Below the pieces are notes generated by a model that saw only the letters and a list, made by a program, of their open reading frames with translations, searched no databases and was not told where the DNA came from. Of a stretch of DNA of 64,000 nt, positions 1 to 12,030 are shown one piece after another. Origin of the DNA: Macrostomum lignano (Eukaryota); contig NIVC01002245.1 in the NCBI GenBank assembly GCA_002269645.1, forward strand, positions 1 through 64,000. The letters are read 5' to 3'. A program made the position numbers and the translations under genes. Positions within the stretch are counted from its first letter, which is position 1. Each line of letters opens with the position of its first letter.

Positions 1-1481
1 CCTTAAATTTAAAAAGAGATATAACTGATTCCTATACCAAAAGGAGTTGATAATTTAGTTGGAGGTGGAGCCTTAAAGCAGGATCGATTCCAAACGGTTG
101 AAACTGGTCACATACCTACCATGCAGATTGGAGTGGAAATGGTTTTGCAATAACCGCAAAGCACTGCATTTAAAACTGATTTTGCAAGTTGGAAAGCGTT
201 TGATGGTAATGATTCAACAGATTGGGCAACAAATAATACTCAAACGATTATTGGATTCAAGTCCAATGCCCTCGCAATAATGTGTTATAAAATTGATTTA
301 CGTGGTAGCCATCACCTTCAACCGAGCACCCAGCATCATGGCGATTTGAGGGAAGTAATGACAATACAAGTTGGGACGTATTATACCTGGCGGATAGTTC
401 TGTAGCAATAAATAACTCAACTCAAACAATTAATGTCACACAAAATTTTGATAAAACATATTCATATTTCAGATTGTTCTGTTACATCAACTCGGGTTCA
501 ACCAACCCGGTCTATCAACCTTCCAGATTTATAGACAGACGTTTACAATCTTGATTTAAAATTTGGGAGTGGTTAATCAATCAATTGATATGGAGGTAAT
601 ACAATTACTAAATCTCTACTATAAACAATAACAGTTCTTGTTACTAAAGGTTATGTTGATACGCGAGTAACACAAACGGCGATGCGAATGTCTTTTAACG
701 ATAAAATAAAATGGATGGAATACCTGCAATGATGCCGCTTTGTACGAGCCTGTAATTTGCAATTGGACTGGATATCAAAACCCAACCACAGCCGGTGATA
801 TTTTTCCAACTGGAAGTTTTGTTGGTAACGCTACTTATATTGATTATCAAAATGGAGCTAGAATTACTGATGAAGCAAGTGGTCAGTCTGGAGCGTTGCA
901 ATTTAATTTCACCCATTTTCGTAATATCTCCGCCTCCTTCTATTTCCGAGTCGCTAATTCTACAGGAGATGGTGCTGACGCTGTTTGGTTTTATGCATAT
1001 TGTCACGAACGGCCAACAACTGAATTTGGATCCGGGTTAACAACCCGCGCCGGCTTGATAGTATTTGCGAGTGAGTGGACTGATAGAGTTGGGGTTGTTT
1101 GGAGCAATATAAAATCAGACGGTGCAACAGTTCGTAATGATGTTCTTAATGACGCAGCAAACTATAACCTATGCTAATATTGATAACGGCGATTGGCATC
1201 TTTTTGAAATTAATATTTTAAATCAAAGAGTTTGGTATCAAATAAGCACATACAATGTATCAGCTAATACATATACGCTAATTGGGCAAAACTTTTTTAC
1301 ATATGATAGTGAACTTGGGGAGATTAGATAAAACGGGAACTCTTATGGGTTTGGTGCTCGAACTGGAGGAGCAGATGCCGCACATTTTATTCGTGGTGCA
1401 GCCGTTTGTGGTAGCACATCAGCAGGATATGATTTTGCTGCGACCGCATATTTGGAACGGCCACAAACCGAAATAACTTAA
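1..1481 (+). pseudogene. Fibre/receptor-binding-like protein: discoidin (F5/8 type C)-like domain, TKGYVD linker, L-type (ConA-like) lectin domain; frameshifted and 5'-truncated
   Basis: Joining frames gives ASWKAFDGNDSTDW (~185-225), PASWRFEGSNDNTSWDVLY (~329-385), YSYFRLF (~458-478), LVTKGYVD (~637-660), GDGADAVWF (~965-990), NIDNGDWHLFEI (~1175-1210) and YGFGARTGGADAAHFIR (~1344-1394), ending at TAA 1479-1481. Confidence 0.62.
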
Positions 1482-1767
1482 ATATTTATATAAATGTTAT
1501 TATTCCTATTCCTAAACAAGAATCAAATATAAAAACATTCAAATCTCATACCAAATTTTTATTTAGTACTGTAAATGTTCAGGATAATAAGAAACTTCAA
1601 GAATTAATTAATTGTTAAAAAATCATATTATACTTCAAGAGTTTTGGAAAATAGGATTTAAATGGGAGAAAAAAGAAAGAATAACTCCAATACAATACCT
1701 ATTGAGCTCGGGACAAATCCCCAAAGAGCGTGGGGAATTCATTTGGTGCTATTAAAAATAGACGAGA

Positions 1768-2419
1768 ATGTCGGTATCTGAAGCAGATAAATGGGAACGC
1801 GACCGGTTCAACCAACGTAAAGGTCAGATGTTGAGTAATGTTGATCGTATTAACTATGATTATGATTTATATACTAAAAAAGTAAGAAGAGTTTCAAACC
1901 ATATAAGAAATATGGATTTTTTCAATATTGGATTTGGAAGTTTATCAATGTTATGTGTAATTGTTTTAGGTATTTTACAATCTATTCCAACTCTTAATTT
2001 ATCTCAATTATTTTTAGGTATTTCAATTGGCTCAATATCAGGTTTTGAAATGATCAGAAACTTATCAATACTTTTAGCAATTAAATTATATCTTAAAAAA
2101 CGAAAGGCAAAAATATAAATCATTAAGAGATGTTGCAAAACAATATAAAAATCATTATATTTATATGTGCAAAAAATATTGGATGATGGAGAGATAACGA
2201 TTCATGAATTATCAACCGCGGTTGAGTTATATGAAAAATATTTAAAAGATAGAAATAGAATTTTAGATGTTGAAACTTTTACCGATATGGAATTAAGAAT
2301 TGCGTTTGGACAAACCCAAAGCTCCTCCGATAGAAACTATAGAATACAAACCTGAAACTATTGCTACTGGGGCACAAAGCCCGCGGTCAGGAAGTGCTGT
2401 AGAACTTCAGGTTGTTTAA
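1768..2419 (+). CDS. Viral two-TM membrane protein, frameshifted (track ORFs 1768..2118 and 2167..2355 are one gene)
   Basis: Two hydrophobic stretches (FFNIGFGSLSMLCVIVLGIL; LFLGISIGSISG). After frame repair it continues YKSLRDVAKQYK-SLYLYVQKILDDGEITIHELSTAVELYEKY and ends PKAPPIETIEYKPETIATGAQSPRSGSAVELQVV*. Confidence 0.5.
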
Positions 2420-2520
2420 TTTATTTAATGCATATGTTATATATTCTTCCCAAAGTGGTAACTCTCTTCTGATCCTAGGTTTAAATTTTTTATCAATACA
2501 TAAAAATTCCAATGACTTTT

Positions 2521-2898
2521 TCATAACATTTCGTTAGGTATGTTACCTATCCTTATAAACTTTGTATTCTCTCGAATAAGAAAATTGAAATAATATCCAA
2601 CTAAAATTAAAATCCTTTCGGAGTCTTTCGAACTTAATCCCTTTCCTTTATTTAAATGGAAAAAGTTATTATATAAATAAACATTATTTCCGGGAATTAA
2701 AATTGGATCAGATATGTCTCTTGTAAGATTTCTTAAAATTGTGTTTTTAAAATAGTAATATGAGTTTTCAATCTTTTTTGTTTTTTCAAATTGATATATT
2801 TTAGAACATGAATAACACATATGATATATATCTCCGTTTGCTGTTTGAGCTCTGTGCATAGTCACATTACATTTATTACAAACATAAATGTCTTTCAT
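2521..2898 (-). CDS. Viral hypothetical protein with N-terminal CxxC...CxxC zinc ribbon
   Basis: 125-aa ORF with CNKC and CYSC pairs; A-run start context (AAAAAAATG). Confidence 0.55.
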   Translation of the reverse strand: MKDIYVCNKCNVTMHRAQTANGDIYHMCYSCSKIYQFEKTKKIENSYYYFKNTILRNLTRDISDPILIPGNNVYLYNNFFHLNKGKGLSSKDSERILILVGYYFNFLIRENTKFIRIGNIPNEML

Positions 2899-2924
2899 TT
2901 TTTTGTTATTTTTTTAGATTAAAA

Positions 2925-3175
2925 ATGGAGAGCTGGTTCAAAACCGATTCTAATGTGATTAATTATCTCACCCCAATATGTTGGAGAATAAAGAATATAA
3001 TATTATATGTTTGAGACAGGTTAAATTTATTGGGCTTCAATCAATATTTTTACAATTAGATGGGCAAAAAATTTTATGTCTAAGCGGAGATGATGTTAAA
3101 AATTTTCCTGTTTTAGTTATTAATAAACCTAAAGCGTTTGTTATGAAATACAGTCGGAGAGTGGTTGCAATTTAA
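2925..3175 (+). CDS. Small viral hypothetical protein with one frameshift near 2972
   Basis: AAAAATG at 2925 reads MESWFKTDSNVINYLT and joins the track ORF 2978..3175 if one base is restored. Divergent from ORF 2898 with a 26-bp spacer. Confidence 0.4.
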
Positions 3176-3265
3176 ACTAAAACAAACAAAAAATAAAAAG
3201 AGTGATAGGACTGTAAAATTGGCGGTTTGGGAGGATGACGACGAAGACTAAATTTTTATAAGAAA

Positions 3266-3700
3266 ATGGATACGATAAAAATCCTTATCACTAAAGAGCG
3301 TGAACTTAATGATATTAATAAAAAAATAAATATAATTATATCTCAGAAATATCATGAGTATGGGGACGATATGTTTCCCATCCGATATGAAATGGATAAA
3401 AGAAAACGTTTTATTAAATCTGCAATTGCTTATGCTGAAACAGTAATTGAAATCGAAATAGATAGGTTGGTTAGAAAAATAAAAAAACTTAGGAAAAAAA
3501 TAAAGGATTGTTTAAGTTACCCTGACGACTGCGAGGAAAATTGGCCTTCAATATTATATGAAATCGAAATGGATATTATGCTTAAACAATTACATGCTTT
3601 AGTTTTTTTCCGCCCGAAGGGTCGCGGATTTTATCCGATAAGTAATTTTTCTGTTAATCTCTTCCAGTTATTCAAGACTTTTTCCTTTTTAATTTTTTAA
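3266..3700 (+). CDS. Viral hypothetical protein, lysine-rich and helical
   Basis: 144-aa ORF with AAAATG start, convergent with the PolB 3' end. Contains the GC hairpin insert read as RPKGR. Confidence 0.5.
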   Translation: MDTIKILITKERELNDINKKINIIISQKYHEYGDDMFPIRYEMDKRKRFIKSAIAYAETVIEIEIDRLVRKIKKLRKKIKDCLSYPDDCEENWPSILYEIEMDIMLKQLHALVFFRPKGRGFYPISNFSVNLFQLFKTFSFLIF

Positions 3701-6700
3701 GTTCTTTTGGAAATGTTGAATATAATTATCTATATCTTTTTCATATTCTAGAAATGTATTATATTCACAATCACATTCGGATTCACAATCACAATCGTAA
3801 TAATAATTATTTATTGCCTCTTTGTATTCATTATATTTGCTTATTATATCTTCTTTTTGTTTTTTATCTTTTATCATATTTTTTATCTCTTCTTTTAAAC
3901 CATATGGATATGTTTTAATTTTATCATCTAAATATCTTTTATCATCAAATGGACTTAATGTTTTTTATCTGTCTCGATGACAAACATCTGATGCTTATCT
4001 GAATTTAATCGATATTGTGGAGCATGATAATTTTCAATTGTATTAAGTAATCTAAAAGTACGTTTTATAATCATCAAATGTTATCTTTTTACTGCTGCCT
4101 TGATACCCCTTTTATTTTTTTTACCTCTCCCTCCTGTCCTAAAACTTTAAATGCATAGCATTTTGATCTTATTGCTATAAACTCGGTTATGATTTTGCTA
4201 TTTAATTCATCTTTCATTTTAAGTACAACTTTTTTATTTTGATCTGATTTTAAAGGATGGTTATCCGGATAGTCGGAGGTATCCAGTGTATCCTTAATTT
4301 TTTCCATATCTTTATAGACATCGAACCTTTGGTTCGCGGGCTTTGCCGTCCTCTGTTTCAACCTTAAATACCAAACTGTCGGTGTCTGCATATATTGGAT
4401 AGTTATCTGGCCATGTTTTATTTATAACATCATAATAATATTCATACATTACAGCTTTGCATAATCTAAAACAACCATTCCAATAAATATTGGTTTAAGA
4501 AATTTTGTTGTTTTATTTCTCATATGAATACCCATAAAGTTATCATCAAATTTTATAAAGTCTTTAAAGTTAGGTTTGAGAAATATTTCTTTGCTTTATC
4601 AATATCCTTTTCTAAATGGAATTGGGTTCTATCTCTAATATTTTCAACCGTTTTTCCATAAAAAGCATTATTCATTAATTTCCAATAATCTTTCTCAAAA
4701 TTGTTTTTGACATCTGTCTCTGATTTGAATTAAAGTCAATATATTTAGCTAACCAATCTTCCTCAATAAACGATATTGTTCGATGTACTTTAGACACTTT
4801 TAATCCCTGCTTTTCATAAAATTGTAGAAGCTTATAATGCACTACATAGTTTTTCTTATCATGTAAATTTAATATTAATTTTTTTGTTGCTAGATGTTTT
4901 GCATTATCTACTTTAAGATAATCTTTTTGTGTTTGTGATAAATCATCTTCATTAACTGAACAATGCTCTGGAGCTAAAGGATATTTATATGTTTTTGCTT
5001 TTGCTTCCCGAGTATATTGCAAATCCACTTCTACGATACAGCCCCTTCCTTCGGGAATATTTTTGTAATAATCGGGGTCATCTTCCCATTGGAAATCAGC
5101 TATTGGTAATTTTTGTTTCATACAACCACCGTATAAATTGTTTGCATCTAGATATAATACATATGATGATTTTTCTTTTTTATTATAATTTGGTAGATAT
5201 TTATTATTTACTTTAGTATATCTATCTCCTAGTACACCCGAGAATCCGCCGCGAATTCCTCTCTCAATCATTAACAACATATCATGATCAGTTAGTAAAT
5301 CAATCTTAACATCTGTGTATTTCAAACCACAAGCCCATGTTAATCCCGGTGCACTGAAACAATATGCGGGATCAATTTTAAAATTCTCATATGTATGATT
5401 CCTAAAGTTTTCAAATGCATCAGCTAATAGGAGAACATCTGCTTTAAGATATAGATTATGATAATCTTTAAATGTTTTACAATTAAAGTATTTCCATACT
5501 TTTTGAGCGTGTTCATAATCCGATTCACTTATGTTTGTTTGTGATAATGTTGAATAAAACTTTTCAATTGGGGGTAATTCGGTATGAAAAAATACGTCTT
5601 CAGATGTTACATATTCATATGGATAGATGCCCTTACGAGTTAATAGCATTAGTTCTTCCTCGGATAGTTTTTCCTTTTTGAAACGATTCAATAGTATTGG
5701 AAAGTTTTTCTTTACTATTTCTAAATCCCATGGTTTTGGAACTAATGATGAAACAACATTTGCTAAAGATGTTGATAAGAATCTCAAGGAATCTAGAAAA
5801 ACTAGATGGGAGTATTTCTTACCATATGTTATTGATATGTAATTTTCTGATGTTTTAGGTAATATATTTATTTCATATTCATCCTTTCCTAAATGAAGCA
5901 ATTCTCGAACTAAGAAATGAAAATCATATCCGGAACCATTATGAAAAAATACTGGTATTTCCTTACATCCTTTTCCTTCTTTTGCATTACATGATCTACA
6001 TGCTGCCCCTCGATAATTTCCTGTTAGATGACAATGTTCTCGTATCTTATTATTCTTACTTAAATGTCTTTTGCACATAAAACAATTTGTTGCATTTTTA
6101 TAATTGTCTCTATCCTTATTTGTCATATTAATATTTTTTGATAATTTATCATATTGATTTTGAATATATTCAAATACATTTACTAATGATTCTGCCATGT
6201 GCTTAGCTGCATCATTACCGTGGTAAGTAATCATCCTTGATTTAAATATATGATCAGCTACAGAGTGTACATATATACAATAACTATTCGGAAACTGTTG
6301 TGCCAATTTTTTTGTGCATTCCCATCATCAGATACCGTCTGTGATTCTTTTAAGGGAACATTTGTTGCTTCAAAATCAGCATATATTACTATTGGTTTTT
6401 TAACTGCCATATAATGTTGTTGGAACTTTAGGGTTGCATCTTCAGATGCTGGCATTATAGCATTAGTAAATTTGTGATCTAAACAAAATCGTTGGTGGTT
6501 TTTAAGAGCTGTTTCATCCTTTTTAAATGTAAAACAATTTCTACATAGTGGATATCTATTTCTATTTTCTCTTAAAAAAGAACTAATATCTTTTATGTAT
6601 ATATAATGTGTTTCATTTTCGCGCTGCATGTACAAAAGATCGATTTGATCTGGTGCTGTTATATCAGTTGCTGGCTTAACAAGATAACACCTTTTCTTAT

Positions 6701-7601
6701 ACCATTCTGGATCGACCTGTTGGGTCGCGGACTCCGTCCGATCGGTTAAAATTTCTTCTAGATCTTTTGGTTCTTCAATTGTAAACACATTAATATTTAA
6801 ACCATTCATTTTTTCAATCTTATATATATCATCTATTGCTACTGGGTATGATATGTTTTTCATTATTATTTCATCCTCATATTGTCTATAATTATATATT
6901 TTATTAATGTGTGATTCTACTTGATTGTGATATTTATGAATTAATAAACACCATAATAAACATTTATTATCTTTATTGTCTGGATTTATAATCATAGGTG
7001 ATTTAAATTTGAGCTTCATATGTGATCGTCCTTTAAGAATTTCTATAGGTGCAATCTTTACTATTGCTGAATTACAGGATACAAATATAAACCCAGATCC
7101 GTTTTCTGTCATCTTATCTATCCATTCATCAAACTCAGCTTCTATTTGATCGAATTGATTGTTGTAATTTCCCATTGATAATAATGTTTTATATGATTCT
7201 TGTGAAAAGTTATTTATTACTTCAATTTCTGAATTTGCATTAAGAATATTTGGTTTTTTAAATTCTGTTTCAACTTCTATTTTATACTTAATTGGCTGTC
7301 GTTTGTTATTTGGCCTTATAGTATAATTGATTAATATGGTCTTTAATTTATCTTTCATTTGTTTAAAATATTCTTTATAATTTGTATTTATATCTATATC
7401 TATATATATTACTTCAGCTCCATTTTGTCCTTGTGGTTGGGGGTTATTAATATCATTTAATTGTCTTTCTAAACGTATCTCATTTTCTGCCCTAATTCTT
7501 GCTTCTATTTCAGCCCTATCGGCAATTCGTTGTGCATCGATTTGAGCTATTAATTGTGCTCTAAGTTCAGGGTTGTCGATTTGAGCTAAAATTGCTTCCA
7601 T
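3689..7601 (-). CDS. polB: Protein-primed family B DNA polymerase (Polinton type), about 1300 aa, split by about 9 frameshifts
   Basis: Exo I IYADFE, Exo II HNGSGYDFHFL, Exo III YLKADVLLL, RKGIYPYEY, IRGG, motif A YLDANNLYG, motif B KLMNNAFYGKT (~4670-4640 after repair), motif C YADTDSL (~4392-4372), IRSKCYA and LSPFDDKRY. After TYPYG the frame runs into track ORF 3689..3877. Confidence 0.95.
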
Positions 7602-7685
7602 TTTATAGAATAAAATTTATATAATGTTTGAATTATTGATTTTTTAATTTTGCGTTTTTGGTGTCCAGACCCTCCCCCCAGGAGC

Positions 7686-8660
7686 CTATTCGAGATCTGC
7701 TTTTGGTAATAGCAATCCATTGCCCATAACGTTTGAATTTAAGAAAATTCCTGAACCTGCTTTTGGTCGCATTTCGAGATATAATCCGCTTCCGTCGTGT
7801 TTTTCAATGATATTAAAATCTTTTCCTAACTTAGTAAAAATCTTCTGAACTGCTGGCCTAAAATTAACCCCAATATTATCAAAAAATCCTTTAGCTTTCT
7901 CACCCGTTTTTTCTAAAGTTTGACCAAATTCATGTAGTTTATCTGCGACAACTCCGCTTCCTTGGGTTGTTCCTTTTAGTACCAAACCACTGCCATTTAA
8001 CAGTAAACCTTTTCCGGCTGCTAACTTAGCTTCTGCATTTCTTTTTTGCTCTGCTGTTGCTGAACTACTATTAATGGTATCAATAAGTTTCTGTTTGAAT
8101 TGTGCGTCCTGCGTTATTTGCTGTCTTTGAAATTCTGCATCTCGTTTAGCTTTTTCATCCGCAGCTTTTTTATCATTTACTGCTTTTGTGATTCCAGCTG
8201 CGCCCCCTGCTATTCCACCAGCTGCTCCTATTCCTGCAAAAATTATTGGTAATAAAGTTGCTAATGGCAATATTCCTCCTTGTTTTGCTTTTAATTCTGC
8301 TAGCTGTTTTCGGTTATCATGAATTCTTTTACCTGCTAAACCGGCTGCTCCGGCTGCTCCGAGGCCTAAAAGAATTGGTAAAATAGGTAACAATCCACCA
8401 TCTTTTTTAGTGTGAGTCTCCAATAAAAATTTTACATCGGAGTCTGTCAACCTATAATTTCTACCATGATTCTTAAAGGATATTGGCCTTCCTTCTTGTG
8501 CATATTTTGCAGCAAGTTTAAATGTATCGATATCGTAGTCAAGTTTTTTACCTAAACGATCCAATCTTTTTAACATTGTGTGGCTATGTTTATTATCATC
8601 TAGATCTAAAGTATCTACAATTTCTCCTATAAAATATAAGCGGTCGTTATCTGTGTCCAT
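7686..8660 (-). CDS. Polinton/adintovirus core or membrane-active protein with adenovirus pX-like GG-ILP hydrophobic segments
   Basis: Intact 324-aa ORF containing GGLLPILPILLGLGAAGAAG and GGILPLATLLPIIFAGIGAAGGIAGGAAGITKAVNDKK, then repeated GxG(L/I/V) motifs. Confidence 0.7.
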   Translation of the reverse strand: MDTDNDRLYFIGEIVDTLDLDDNKHSHTMLKRLDRLGKKLDYDIDTFKLAAKYAQEGRPISFKNHGRNYRLTDSDVKFLLETHTKKDGGLLPILPILLGLGAAGAAGLAGKRIHDNRKQLAELKAKQGGILPLATLLPIIFAGIGAAGGIAGGAAGITKAVNDKKAADEKAKRDAEFQRQQITQDAQFKQKLIDTINSSSATAEQKRNAEAKLAAGKGLLLNGSGLVLKGTTQGSGVVADKLHEFGQTLEKTGEKAKGFFDNIGVNFRPAVQKIFTKLGKDFNIIEKHDGSGLYLEMRPKAGSGIFLNSNVMGNGLLLPKADLE

Positions 8661-8670
8661 TTTTATATTG

Positions 8671-9069
8671 TTAAAATTTCTTTAATCCTTTTCCGCCTTT
8701 AATTGTGGTTAACATTTTATTAAAATCCTGAATATCTTTATTACTTATTGGCGCGCTTTTCGTGGGGGTTTCTGTTGGTTGTGCGGCTTGTGCCAGCTTT
8801 AAATCTTTTATTGCATTTATTTGTGAGAGGGTGTCGTTAAAATCTCTCAATTTCTTTAGTTCTTCTGCCGCTCTAGCTGCTTCAATTCCTCCTTTTACAG
8901 CATTTGTTATAGAGCCTGCTGCAGAGCCAGCTTGCCCTATAAGCCCCATATTGTCTTTAACGAAATTTGCTGCTGTTCCAACCACATCAAAAAGCCCCTC
9001 ACCTCGGTATTCAACTGGGTCTCCTACCTGCAATTCATTCAGATTTTGCATATGTGTAACGTGTGTCAT
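8671..9069 (-). CDS. Small viral protein with a putative amphipathic helix (pVI-like); probable start 9069 rather than 9117
   Basis: GEGLFDVVGTAANFVKDNMGLIG segment; ends GGKGLKKF. ATG 9069 has the A-run context shared with the other element genes. Confidence 0.55.
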   Translation of the reverse strand: MTHVTHMQNLNELQVGDPVEYRGEGLFDVVGTAANFVKDNMGLIGQAGSAAGSITNAVKGGIEAARAAEELKKLRDFNDTLSQINAIKDLKLAQAAQPTETPTKSAPISNKDIQDFNKMLTTIKGGKGLKKF

Positions 9070-9109
9070 TTTTTGTTCTATTTTTAGTAACAGAAAAAAA
9101 GATTGTCTG

Positions 9110-9207
9110 CATTCCATTTAGACCAGATTTTAGACCAAATTTTTGAAAACGAAAACCAAAACGATAGTCTAGTTTTGTTTGGTCTAAAATCTGGTCTAAA
9201 TGGAATG
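9110..9207. repeat. Perfect 30-bp inverted repeat with 38-bp spacer
   Basis: cattccatttagaccagattttagaccaaa (9110-9139) is the exact reverse complement of 9178-9207. Confidence 0.97.
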
Positions 9208-9273
9208 TTGGGTGGGTAGGTGAGCTGACTATAAATAGCTTCTATTCTTTCCGACCCTTCGCGCCTGCGGCGC

Positions 9274-9578
9274 GGGCAAGGGGTTATAGAGTAGTAGTAT
9301 ATAAAAAGACGCTTACAGATCAGACCTTATTTTAATGGCCGTTTTTATGGTCTTAAGAGGGGGGACGCGAGGGGGGTGTTGGGGAGTGTTTGGAAGTGTT
9401 GGGAATGATTTTTATTGTTAGGGGTGATTATGGGTGATTAGATGTATTAATGGTGTTTAGATGTGTTTTTTTATTTACCCCCCGTGTCCCCCCTCTAGAC
9501 CCTTAAAACGGTCATTAAAAAAGTGCTCTGGGTCTAGAAGCGTCTTTTTATATACTACTACTCTATAACCCCTTGCCC
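9274..9578. repeat. About 100-bp-arm inverted repeat, outer 41 bp perfect; candidate element terminus
   Basis: 9274-9314 is the exact reverse complement of 9538-9578. Imperfect pairing continues inward to about 9375/9478. Arms contain AGTAGTAGT (9290-9298) and ACTACTACT (9554-9562). Confidence 0.93.
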
Positions 9579-10076
9579 TTGCTATTCTGTGGCAGGCTTG
9601 AGTTGAGGAATGAAGTGAGGGGGGGGGGTGCAGTGTGCGAGGGTTTTGTTGGATGGATTAAAGCTACCCAATCAGTTTTATTGTATATTTTATTTCAGAA
9701 TAGTCCATGAGAAATTGCTCACTGGGGCATAGAGTGGCAAATTTCAAACAATAAAAAAATAGATTTAGAAGAAAGTCAAATGTTCAAAAAACAATTTTTC
9801 ATGCTTTCCAAGTTTGGATTTTGAATTCGAATGCCCCCATGGGGGCTTAATGCGCTAGTATGTACTTTTTTTGTTTATGTTTTTTTACTTTTGATTATAG
9901 CTAGGACACTTGACTTCAATATAATATAATTAAATATGCATCAATATATACGATTTTTAATCAGAAGCATATAGATAAAAAATTATTCTATTCGAATTTT
10001 CCTGCTGTTAGTAGTGTCATTCAGTTCATTTGCTAATTTGCTTCAGATATTTATTAAAATCTAAATACAAAGTCAG

Positions 10077-11360
10077 ATGGAGCGCCGGTTCATATCGGAG
10101 AAGCAGTTGGCTGACATTGCCAGCAGCGGAAACTGGAACGAGGCGGCCAGGGCGATGAAGAGCAGGAGCCATACGACCCGCGCTCCCTCTATGAGCGTCT
10201 GCAGGAGCAGAAAGACAAAAAGCAAGCAGAATATGAGGAGCAGCACGCGTTACGAAATCAGGTTTCTGAGATAATAAAAGCCGCTTTATACTACTTACTA
10301 AACTGGCTACTAGTATCAAAAAGCTAACTTAACAATTCCCTATTGTAATTCCATTTCGTATGGAGGGCGTCCTCTTTGTCTGGGCACCCTTTACTCGGCA
10401 GCCTTGGATCGCCTCCTCAGAACAGCCTCTTCCAGGACACCATGTACCCTTTCCATCCAAGGACACCCAGGACACCCTGGACAGCCTTTCCCAGGACACT
10501 CTGGACAGCCTTTCCTAAGACACCCTGGACACCATTTTCCAGGACACTATGGACCCTTCCCAGGACACTTTGGACAGCTTTACTAAGACACCCTGGACAG
10601 CTTTTCTCAGGACACCATAGACCCTTTGCGAAGACACCATGGACCCTTTCCCAGGACACCATAGACCCTTTGCGAAGACACCATGGACCCTTTCCCAGGA
10701 CACCCTAGATAGCCTTTCCCAGGACGCAATGGACAGTTTTTTACCAGTATATCCTTTGCCTAGAAATCTTCTCTGGACACGCCTTTCCTTGGACGCGCTC
10801 CTCTCTCAGGACACCTCCAAACACTACTTGAGTAGTCAGTACTGTAGATTAATGTAATTATTCAAGTTCCCAAAGTGGACCAATCACCCCGCCGCCGGCA
10901 GGTGTCCCGCATCACGGAGGACGAGGCTCAGTTTCTGTCCGACCTGGCCAAGCGCCAAGCCGAAGAGGAGCGCCAACGCCGCGCCGAGGACCGCGCCCTC
11001 ATCGAGGCCTACAACCGTGCGGTGCAGGGCCGCAAGCCCGCGGCAGATCCGAGCGCTGGAGACGTCACCGCCGCGCCTGTGACTGTGTCGATCAGCGTCT
11101 CCAACTCGTCTGGCGCCGGTCCCAAAAAGACCAGCGCCCAGCGCAGTCTGCTGGGCCGGGCTGTTGCCGTGAAACGAAAATTGCCCATTGACTCAGCTGG
11201 CGGCAATGATGAGGCATCGTCTCAGTCTCAGCCTCCGGCAAAGTCGGTCGCCGATTCAAAGACAGAAGCGAAACCTGAGGCAAAGGATGCCGCGGTGTCG
11301 CTTTTAGCCGCCTACGCGACTGACTCAGACTCAGAGGCTGATGAGGCATCAGCGTTTTGA
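10077..11360 (+). CDS. PSME3IP1: PSME3-interacting protein (FAM192A/NIP30); join(10077..10261,10902..11360) with a 1-nt deletion near 10119
   Basis: Repaired exon 1 reads [14 protein letters not shown](R)QQRKLE...[28 protein letters not shown] intron in phase 0. Exon 2 begins [12 protein letters not shown]. Confidence 0.85.
10420..10720. repeat. Degenerate ~22-bp minisatellite (gacaccatggaccctttcccag) in the PSME3IP1 intron
   Basis: Tandem units read directly. Confidence 0.85.
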
Positions 11361-11540
11361 GTTTGGCCTGCCTTTTTCGTGTTTTTAACAATTATGCATT
11401 TTTCAGATTTCAGTAACTGACATTCTTGGTTGGCCTTTGAATTTGTTAATGAAACATGTTGTTTACGGGTCAAAATCTCTTGTAAAGTAGTGATCCCGAA
11501 CTAAAAAAAAATTTGGGAATTTGATTAGTTCTAGAAATGA

Positions 11541-12030
11541 GATTTTGCGATTTGGGGAATTCTAGGTGTCAGGTTTTGCGATTTGGGGAATTCTAGGTGT
11601 CAGATTTCACAATTTGGGGAATTCTAGGTGTCAGGTTTTGCGATTTGGGGAATTCTAGGTGTCAGGCTTTGCGATTTGGGGAATTCTAGGTGTCAGGTTT
11701 TGCGATTTGGGGAATTCTAGGTGTCAGGCTTTGCGATTTGGGGAATTCTAGGTGTCAGGTTTTGCGATTTGGGGAATTCTAGGTGTCAGGCTTTGCGATT
11801 TGGGGAATTCTAGGTGTCAGGCTTTGCGATTTGGGGAATTCTAGGTGTCAGGCTTTGCGATTTGGGGAATTCTAGGTGTCAGGTTTTGCGATTTGGGGAA
11901 TTCTAGTTTGTCAGGTTTTGCGATTTGGGGAATTCTAGGTGTCAGGTTTTGCGATTTGGGGAATTCTAGTTTGTCAGGTTTTGCGATTTGGGGAATTCTA
12001 GGTGTCAGGTTTTGCGATTTGGGGAATTCT
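11541..12030. repeat. 31-bp minisatellite (ttttgcgatttggggaattctaggtgtcagg), about 16 copies
   Basis: Tandem units read directly. Confidence 0.95.

Follow-up and report, generated by a model that had tools for sequence, protein, structure and literature searches.

The marine flatworm Macrostomum lignano harbors a family of Polintons in which two non-alignable polymerases, termed A and B, occupy the same slot, and each polymerase is found almost exclusively next to its own type of hairpin end while other genes are mixed across the two types. One copy carrying polymerase A lies with its right arm at the start of the window, i.e., the 64,000-nucleotide stretch of contig NIVC01002245.1 (C2245) analyzed here.

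Identity and Extent of the Element

The window copy is a Polinton/adintovirus-type element of which only the right arm lies in the window, and its identity as a Polinton is practically certain. The original prediction of an integrated right arm whose virion and integrase genes lie to the left of the window is supported, since the missing genes were recovered on contig C1480 and in full-length siblings; the window, however, begins at base 1 of C2245, and the assembly holds nothing leftward. C1480 combines the left arm of the element with the upstream host DNA of this locus and carries the integrase, the predicted double-jelly-roll major capsid, the ATPase and candidate minor-capsid genes, which are also present in the siblings. 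The left terminal inverted repeat was likewise found there and differs from the right repeat at 3 of 307 positions. Sibling copies measure about 17.7 kb (typically 17.3–18.3 kb), have 307-bp terminal inverted repeats and show 6-bp target-site duplications at 10 of 16 same-contig end pairs, values within the respective Polinton ranges of 13–25 kb, 100–1500 bp and 5–8 bp. The family is young and present in many copies, and the window copy represents a recent insertion. An organellar linear plasmid is ruled out by the capsid, ATPase and integrase genes located on the same element as the polymerase.

As had been described, the element consists of AT-rich, intronless and compact ORFs (GC 0.319 vs. 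0.497 in the rest of the window) and is followed by a host gene, FAM192A, which starts 518 bp past the element end (Table 1). Its extent had been given as 1..9580; sibling ends place the actual right end at 9559, the following bases up to 9577 being an extension specific to this copy. Rfam returned no match within positions 1–12000. The polymerase and fibre genes are split into several frame pieces in the window copy; these breaks are probably mostly assembly errors, and homopolymer errors were left uncorrected in the assembly. A one-base error in FAM192A, used as a control, is absent from 4/4 read sets and 3/3 empty loci.

Table 1. Features of the window copy and the adjoining host DNA (window positions).
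Feature	Position	Strand	Remarks
Fibre shaft repeat end (19-residue units)	1..122	+	truncated by contig start; from sequence
F5/8 type C (discoidin) sugar-binding module of fibre	123..548	+	two frame pieces here; mapped from sibling
All-beta fibre head	592..1478	+	three frame pieces here; family has two alleles about 80% alike
About five small orphan ORFs	1490..3700		several in pieces here; common to both polymerase types; no significant family match
Polymerase A, family-B	3689..7601	-	at least 4 frame pieces in assembly; endonuclease VII/HNH insert at about 5944–6132
324-aa core protein, two pX-like hydrophobic motifs after K-x-G-G sites	7686..8660	-	PF05829, E 1.4e-4
Small protein, predicted amphipathic helix	8671..9117	-	from sequence; no family match
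Small hairpin, 30-bp perfect arms, 38-nt branched loop	9110..9207		z -11.1; seen only near right ends
Right terminal inverted repeat, type A, 307 bp	9253..9559		itself a hairpin with a stem of about 100 bp; z -15.1
Extension past normal end, 18–19 nt	9560..9577	+	identical to reverse complement of 9274–9292, beside inner hairpin arm
Host DNA present on both sides of insertion, 292 bp	9578..9869		matches C1480:70519-70810 at 100% identity; left end of the element comes next there
Host FAM192A first exon	10077..10261	+	PF10187, E 4.7e-13; one-base assembly error

Virion, Integration and Fibre Genes

The rve integrase on the left arm in C1480 matches PF00665 with an E-value of 1.2e-7 (32.3 bits at a cut-off of 32.6), and that of a sibling does so above the cut-off (E 4e-8); the packaging ATPase (A32/FtsK) matches PF04665 (E 7.7e-7). 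The major capsid is a double jelly roll according to its predicted fold (model pLDDT 52), which matches the capsids of iridovirus, mavirus and PBCV-1 with an E-value of 7e-13. The capsid itself has no direct Pfam match; among its relatives, 19 of the 25 scanned match PF21738, 17 of them above the cut-off. An alignment search of viral and metagenome contigs for the capsid returned no relatives with DNA context. Close relatives of the capsid lineage are few (three at 41–50% identity); Polintons of flatworms in general had been recorded before. Two ORFs of 146 aa and 261 aa have the size and place expected of an adenain-like protease and a single-jelly-roll minor capsid, with His/Cys motifs recognized by eye; neither candidate matched the family library. 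Judging from its gene content, the family is predicted to form virions.

The fibre shaft frame of a sibling matches phage tail-fibre families (phrog_10305, E 4.7e-12). The earlier reading of a lectin fibre-like protein is confirmed as regards the F5/8 sugar-binding domain, detected in the sibling fibre (E 1.5e-12), whereas the lectin call for the following head domain is a lead only: the head is possibly legume-lectin-like, its single-sequence fold was unusable (pLDDT 31.5), and no match among solved structures was found. As for the proteins described as pX- and pVI-like, the former assignment is consistent with the PF05829 match, which lies below the curated cut-off, and with Atlas clusters (PF05829 at 0.90); the K-x-G-G sites are likely sites of protease cleavage, and no gasdermin or phospholipase domain was detected. 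The latter assignment found no family match, and the small protein may possibly be membrane-active, pVI- or cupiennin-like. In adintoviruses, GasderminX and cupiennin-like genes characterize the Beta virion module.

The Junction of the Window Copy

The window copy has a precise left end, a lengthened right end and a duplication of 292 bp of host DNA, in place of the 6-bp target-site duplication that had been expected and that is present in siblings. The extension occurs in 1 of 51 ends examined; the other 50 match it over at most 2 nt and stop at exactly the same base. The host locus is present four times, namely as three empty loci and that of the window. The extension as a host repeat was rejected because the empty loci lack it, and two independent insertions at the locus were rejected because the locus has only four copies. 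The empty loci differ from the duplicated host stretch by 8–10 substitutions plus gaps. An apparent pairing of contig C3750 with the window is a pattern artefact. Among the contig pieces listed for four read sets, none spans the right junction of the window.

The window copy probably arose through one-ended integration. Its right 3' end would have folded onto the inner hairpin arm, or switched template to it, and thereby gained the 18–19 nt; because the right end was altered, the integrase would then have acted on the left end alone, with host repair attaching the right end 292 bp upstream, so that the host DNA in between became duplicated.

Two Polymerases and Two Terminal Hairpins

The PolB call of the original prediction was corroborated by exonuclease and polymerase motifs in the sequence and by 4,174 relatives including integrase-linked animal ones (best 55%); protein priming by the family polymerases is predicted. 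Polymerase B matches PF03175 (E 1.1e-18), while a 519-aa piece of polymerase A does not, although one of six scanned relatives does; in the terms of adintoviruses, Alpha denotes a pfam03175-type and Beta a divergent polymerase, and the comparison here is by family profiles. A quick tree of 40 hand-chosen relatives out of 120 groups the window polymerase, which has a long branch, with unnamed relatives and away from the named coral and spider ones; this placement is unsure. The one polymerase relative with DNA context lies on a 2.9-kb contig that includes no ends.

The segments 9274–9319 and 9533–9578, originally taken for a terminal repeat pair, are in fact both arms of the hairpin within the single right repeat. 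The type B end is a second hairpin repeat unrelated to A (z -6.2), and the two types have in common only the last 11 bases, which lie outside the stem in type B, and an inner 22-bp block. The type B stem shows six pairs changed on both sides; in all 17 of 17 diverged A variants, the outer arm is a better fit to the inner arm of the same variant than to that of the window, and in one copy the letters of the outer arm have overwritten the inner arm. The small hairpin is internal and lacking from many copies. Both orientations of its loop are represented among the copies, by 32 and 15 exact matches, and for six of nine inverted-loop copies the nearest copy is non-inverted. Contig C1767, a candidate solo repeat, proved to be a right end with another sub-terminal block.

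Pairing of Polymerases, Ends and Nuclease Halves

Among 56 right arms, 39 combine polymerase A with end A and 16 polymerase B with end B, while one carries polymerase B with end A and none the reverse. Genome-wide, 90 of 99 polymerase A sites adjoin an A-family end and none a B-family end (nine unassigned), and 28 of 32 polymerase B sites adjoin a B-family end and one an A-family end (three unassigned), counts that were tallied by hand over copies that are not independent, as they share ancestry and some represent one insertion twice. The pairing, over a polymerase-to-right-end distance of about 2 kb, is kept in older variants whose ends are only 67–88% like that of the window. The exception, C2322, with polymerase B and an A right end, likely has a type B left end; C2834, in which a B left end is linked to polymerase A, is probably a chimeric contig.

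The remaining gene pool is mixed. Of the 15 shared blocks, 14 are mixed across end types (Fst 0.00–0.18, 0–1 near-fixed differences), among them pX and the small gene, both located between polymerase and end. Fst is slightly higher near the right end (0.16–0.18), and the identity of capsid DNA between types reaches 99.9%. The optional F5/8 fibre module, a non-homologous control, is independent of polymerase type (16 copies with and 22 without it for polymerase A, 8 and 8 for polymerase B; P 0.77). The assembly mixes copies, since 6/16 same-contig end pairs lack matching 6-bp duplications; in the 11 copies with matching duplications, alleles are nevertheless common across types and both fibre types occur in both classes.

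The 15th block, the N-terminal half of a free-standing HNH nuclease, is the only one to follow the end type (36 near-fixed differences): by hand count, alleles A and B are 61% identical over residues 1–90 (55/90) and 89% over residues 91–185 (85/95). Allele B lies about 2.9 kb from a B end at 16/16 sites. Allele A directly adjoins an A end at 30 of 42 sites and has no nearby B motif at 10; the other two adjoin a diverged B-type end, one of them with polymerase B. The slot can be occupied by unrelated nucleases in either type, and a third allele is found in the only insertion that is likely mixed-ended.

Possible Explanations of the Pairing

Current understanding of Polinton replication rests on models. 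A functional coupling in which each polymerase recognizes its cognate ends is favored here with moderate confidence. The released linear genome would be copied by protein priming from its ends, and each polymerase keeps its own end type likely because, with the terminal protein that it is predicted to carry as a fusion, it initiates only at cognate ends. Co-replicating genomes would recombine, and molecules with mismatched polymerase and end would be lost, so that capsid, fibre and integrase genes mix freely while the polymerase stays with its hairpin end; the terminal 11 bases common to both types may be what the common integrase reads. Polinton polymerases have an N-terminal terminal-protein domain (PMC11161782) and phi29-type initiation requires homologous polymerase, terminal protein and origin (PMC2175359). 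More tentatively, the hairpin end, the polymerase-terminal protein and the DNA-binding half of the nuclease might travel together as a separable self-recognition module over 17 kb, such that two competing replicons in one germ line use one pool of virion and integrase genes.

The nuclease half is tied to the ends as tightly as the polymerase, and factors besides polymerase specificity can therefore link loci. It is conceivable, if somewhat unlikely, that the nuclease enforces the split, its type-specific DNA-binding halves cutting the end of the other type in the style of phage homing-type enzymes, whereby mismatched recombinants would destroy themselves. The divergence confined to one half, the position of allele B beside B ends and of allele A mostly beside A ends, and the third allele in the likely mixed-end insertion agree with this, as does the exchange for unrelated nucleases, which argues against an essential cognate part. 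However, copies with other nucleases still match polymerase to end, allele A has two sites next to a diverged end of type B, and no target site was recognized for the predicted nuclease (family call phrog_1035, E 2.6e-6). Rather unlikely is a purely historical linkage, in which two lineages met in one host and swap short homologous patches, leaving non-homologous blocks and ends together without selection: patchwise mosaics in pX and its neighbors and the raised Fst toward the right end fit it, and both ends have to match each other anyway, but other non-homologous blocks have crossed types (the F5/8 module, alternative nucleases, sub-terminal blocks) and the polymerase has not moved despite 90–99% homologous flanks on both sides.

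Priming by fold-back of the hairpin ends, parvovirus-like and without terminal protein, would explain the extension as a self-priming product that became trapped and the loop orientations as flip/flop isomers; the overwritten inner arm would also suit it, and the same idea has been proposed for protist virophage palindromes (10.64898/2026.07.28.741278). It is nevertheless improbable given that 50/51 ends halt at one base, that the last 11 bases of type B lie outside the stem, and that the invertible hairpin is internal, restricted to right ends and missing in many copies. An assembly artefact, with chimeric joins and cross-copy polishing creating the apparent mixing and the odd junction, is very improbable: homopolymer errors and unmatched end pairs speak for it, but chimeric joins would blur the pairing rather than create it, polymerase and right end lie within about 2 kb of each other, the copies with matching duplications still share alleles and fibre types, the 292-bp stretch recurs in a second contig, and the tally of loci comes out at four.

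Relation to Known Systems

Two polymerase classes per host and terminal palindromes are each known already, separately. The supplement of Jeong et al. (10.1101/2023.08.22.554363; PMC10748475) records 748 integrase-linked flatworm polymerases in 8 of 73 flatworm genomes, and the M. lignano family may be among these entries, which are listed by accession only. A literature search, with most subscription papers and Repbase outside it, returned no Macrostomum Polinton/Maverick paper, none on a Polinton endonuclease VII with pPolB and, among the papers listed, none whose entry describes an end type that tracks the polymerase type.

The Caenorhabditis pPolB1/pPolB2 Polintons of the same study likewise combine two deeply divergent polymerases in one host with other genes in common, one class having an HNH domain; their terminal repeats, however, are described as conserved across classes and their shared proteins are 66–92% identical (PMC10748475), whereas in M. 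lignano the end type differs with the polymerase, identity of capsid DNA between types reaches 99.9% and the nuclease half co-segregates, neither polymerase being placed in pPolB1 or pPolB2. Alpha and Beta adintoviruses have in common with the M. lignano family the polymerase, rve integrase, packaging ATPase, hexon and pX-bearing protein, as well as the penton and protease, for which M. lignano offers candidates; for some Alpha polymerases, an association with Beta virion modules was inferred across species (Starrett et al., PMC8502044). In M. lignano, both polymerase states occur in one genome, the capsid is far from the named ones and the pX protein has no detected phospholipase or gasdermin domain; a module exchange inferred across species is thus caught inside one genome. 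Endogenous virophages/PLVs of Halocafeteria also show palindromes within terminal repeats, mobile replication genes and patchy HNH nucleases; there, the host is a protist and the 52-nt palindromes occur mainly with non-pPolB replicases (10.64898/2026.07.28.741278), in contrast to stems of about 100 bp with two pPolB types in an animal.

With two polymerases, two end types, and one integrase and capsid, the family amounts to a reciprocal experiment set up by nature in a flatworm that is kept in the laboratory, in which origin specificity, the role of the terminal hairpin and the job of the accessory nuclease can be tested directly using individual proteins and short pieces of end DNA. The window junction would likewise be a natural record of a folded-back end and of integration by one end only, with a housekeeping gene 500 bp away. 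One-ended retroviral integration leads to host duplications of hundreds of bases, with one precise and one altered end as here; the cases in that study concern HIV and ASLV vectors under drugs or mutants (PMC5041404), while the M. lignano case is a natural germ-line Polinton whose altered end appears to be templated by its own hairpin.

Class and insertion of the element

The first 9.6 kb of the window belong to an adintovirus-type Polinton. A host ribosomal protein encoded further along matches a record for the marine flatworm Macrostomum lignano at 100% identity. The element's frames are intronless and tightly packed, with a GC content of 0.319 as opposed to 0.497 in the rest of the window, and at least 39 near-identical copies of its end region exist (40 of 259 candidates scored). 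Full-length siblings, mostly 17.3–18.3 kb long with terminal repeats of ~307 bp, encode an rve integrase, an A32-type ATPase, a 490-aa capsid protein and a fibre, together with a probable minor capsid protein and protease, both assigned by size, position and motifs only. The capsid protein has three relatives at 41–50% identity and 232 by profile (PF21738 is matched by 19 of the 25 profile relatives scanned), and its model (pLDDT 52) resembles double-jelly-roll capsids in structure comparison. The window's polymerase contains an endonuclease VII domain and has 4,174 relatives, the closest at 55%. Target duplications of 6 bp accompany 10 of 16 same-contig end pairs. The Polinton/adintovirus-like class of the original prediction is upheld. 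That prediction had also placed the left arm left of the window; the window starts at base 1 of its contig (C2245) with nothing before it, and the left arm lies on contig C1480 (see table).

Features of the element and its host locus
Feature	Location	Remarks
Polymerase A	window 3689..7601 (−)	family B
Slot between last gene and right repeat	window 9102–9252; also L057, L168–L207	content varies among copies
Small branched hairpin	window 9110–9207	38-nt loop
Right terminal repeat (end A)	window 9253–9559
Host duplicate	window 9578–9869; C1480:70519–70810	identical; on C1480 followed by the precise left end
Left arm	C1480	7.2 kb; integrase, nuclease, capsid, ATPase
Free-standing HNH-like nuclease	2.5 kb from left end
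Host genes, confirmed	window 10077–64000	FAM192A, LZTR1-like kelch gene, RPL35A
Host genes, by eye	window 10077–64000	MFS transporter, mitochondrial carrier, gelsolin, VPS51-like

Because the two contigs have this 292-bp stretch in common, the host DNA upstream on C1480 is collinear with three copies of the locus lacking the element (empty loci), and the host DNA downstream occurs exactly four times in the assembly, C2245 and C1480 each hold half of a single insertion, flanked by a host duplication of 292 bp. The duplicates show no differences from each other and 8–10 substitutions plus gaps relative to the empty loci. The right end carries 18–19 additional bases, identical to the sequence adjoining the inner hairpin arm, an extension found in one of 51 ends examined; it may stem from same-molecule fold-back or inter-molecule template switching, which are indistinguishable here. 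An intact end opposite an altered one, together with an extended host duplication, is the pattern left by one-ended retroviral integration completed by host repair, as described in PMC5041404. None of the short-read contigs listed spans the right junction.

The window's polymerase and fibre genes are fragmented into several frame pieces. Most breaks are probably assembly errors, and the copy is young, since all eight of its rare indels lie in single-letter runs (rare substitutions number five in 5.35 kb), a like error in the adjacent host exon is missing from 4/4 read sets and 3/3 empty loci, and full-length frames within single stretches are few (polymerase A 3/36, polymerase B 4/17).

Two types of terminal repeat

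Sibling matches stop within a few bases of window position 9559, where all sibling ends read ...ACTACT, which moves the element's end from the 9580 first proposed; the terminal inverted repeats proposed with it are an inverted repeat within one terminal repeat, which folds as a hairpin of ~100 bp (z −15.1). A second type, end B, coincides with end A only in its last 11 bases and in an inner 22-bp block, and likewise makes a long hairpin (z −6.2). Pairing holds in 98% of cells across 11 distinct B ends, with six pairs altered on both sides, figures to be read with the caveat that related sequences may surpass the shuffle control and that arm-to-arm copying mimics the selection signal. Among diverged A variants, 17 were measured (18 less one repeat), and in every one the outer arm is a closer match to its own inner arm than to that of the window. 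Exact motifs, which overlook diverged copies, put the number of ends at 134 for type A and 64 for type B.

In one copy (L045, G000:C3750), outer-arm letters overwrite the inner hairpin arm of the right repeat for ~25 bases, which points to templating of one arm by the other. The slot beside the right repeat holds the small hairpin block, a different ~330-bp block, inserts of up to ~2 kb, or none. Of 47 exact matches to the small hairpin, 15 have the loop inverted, and a single substitution in ~1.5 kb separates one inverted copy from non-inverted ones; repeated flipping or tight recombination, indistinguishable from each other, may account for this.

Pairing of polymerases and ends

In some copies the 3.9-kb polymerase block is swapped for a 1,206-aa polymerase B with a PF03175 match, which gives no alignment with the window's 519-aa polymerase piece. 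Polymerase type and end type go together: 56 right arms comprise 39 with polymerase A and end A, 16 with B and B, one with polymerase B and end A, and none with polymerase A and end B. Genome-wide, in a hand tally of exact-motif lists, likewise blind to diverged copies, and 40 extra stretches, 90 of 99 polymerase A sites adjoin an A-family end and none a B end (the stretches examined took in five of the other nine, with no visible end), while 28 of 32 polymerase B sites adjoin a B-family end, one an A end and three have no end assigned. These counts overstate independent events because the copies are related. Of the contigs with both ends, 6/16 look chimeric. A B-type left end on C2834 (L133, L137) and an A-type right end on C2322 (L037) have a common 6-bp flank, which may reflect either an insertion with mixed ends that carries a third nuclease allele or chimeric assembly of the contig.

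With five duplicate insertions set aside, differentiation between end types is low in 14 of the 15 shared blocks, both genes between polymerase and end among them: Fst is 0.00–0.18 and near-fixed differences number 0–1, several of these values nonetheless exceeding permutation. The 11 copies whose duplications match show the same low differentiation.

Explanations of the pairing

Functional coupling of each polymerase to its cognate end is, on balance, the reading we favour. Given that Polinton polymerases carry an N-terminal terminal protein (PMC11161782) and that initiation of the phi29 type requires polymerase, terminal protein and origin to be homologous (PMC2175359), a polymerase swap would be a primer swap and probably also a swap of the origin read. 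The shared 11 terminal bases would suit a shared integrase, and recombinants with mismatched polymerase and end would be lost. Plain history and linkage is a doubtful account of the pairing, weakened by the fact that other non-homologous blocks did move; the partly non-homologous fibre module sorts independently of polymerase type (P 0.77). Priming of replication by the hairpins, which both end types form, appears improbable, weakened by 50 of 51 ends being exact.

Instead of or alongside polymerase–end coupling, a nuclease may act by cutting non-self ends, a less likely reading. The exceptional fifteenth block is the N-terminal half of the HNH-like nuclease (Fst 0.77, 36 near-fixed differences), where alleles A and B have 55/90 identical residues, as opposed to 85/95 in the rest. 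Allele B adjoins a B end at 16/16 sites; among 42 allele A sites, 30 lie directly beside an A end, two beside a diverged B end and ten have no nearby B motif. Other nucleases fill this slot in 5/30 left arms, of both types.

Comparison with known systems

Nematode Polintons with two polymerase classes in one host have conserved terminal repeats (Jeong et al., PMC10748475), Alpha polymerases on Beta virion modules have been inferred across species (PMC8502044), and virophages of protists have been described with palindromes at their termini (10.64898/2026.07.28.741278). Since the Jeong et al. supplement gives 748 flatworm polymerases by accession, M. lignano copies may be counted among them; the available part of the Starrett et al. 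supplement (PMC8502044) contains no flatworm term. A literature search, with most subscription papers outside its scope, found neither the M. lignano family nor end type tracking polymerase type described.

Other copies and host surroundings

Nested copies occur on C2140 and C2506 (L099–L101, L114, L153), where one interrupts a capsid gene and another the terminal repeat of a different copy; both have a 6-bp duplication. Short elements of 1.8–2.9 kb lie between B-type ends on C762 (L134), where only pX and a small gene are retained, and, by motif, on C110, C691 and C1040. A further copy on C110 (L016–L018) has a ~5.2 kb internal duplication from protease to small ORFs. On C3967 (L035, L107), a 98-aa frame replaces the usual spacer between integrase and nuclease; by eye, we take it to resemble a parvovirus-type phospholipase A2 motif. 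The host locus, present in four copies in the assembly, contains genes with minisatellite arrays between their long exons.
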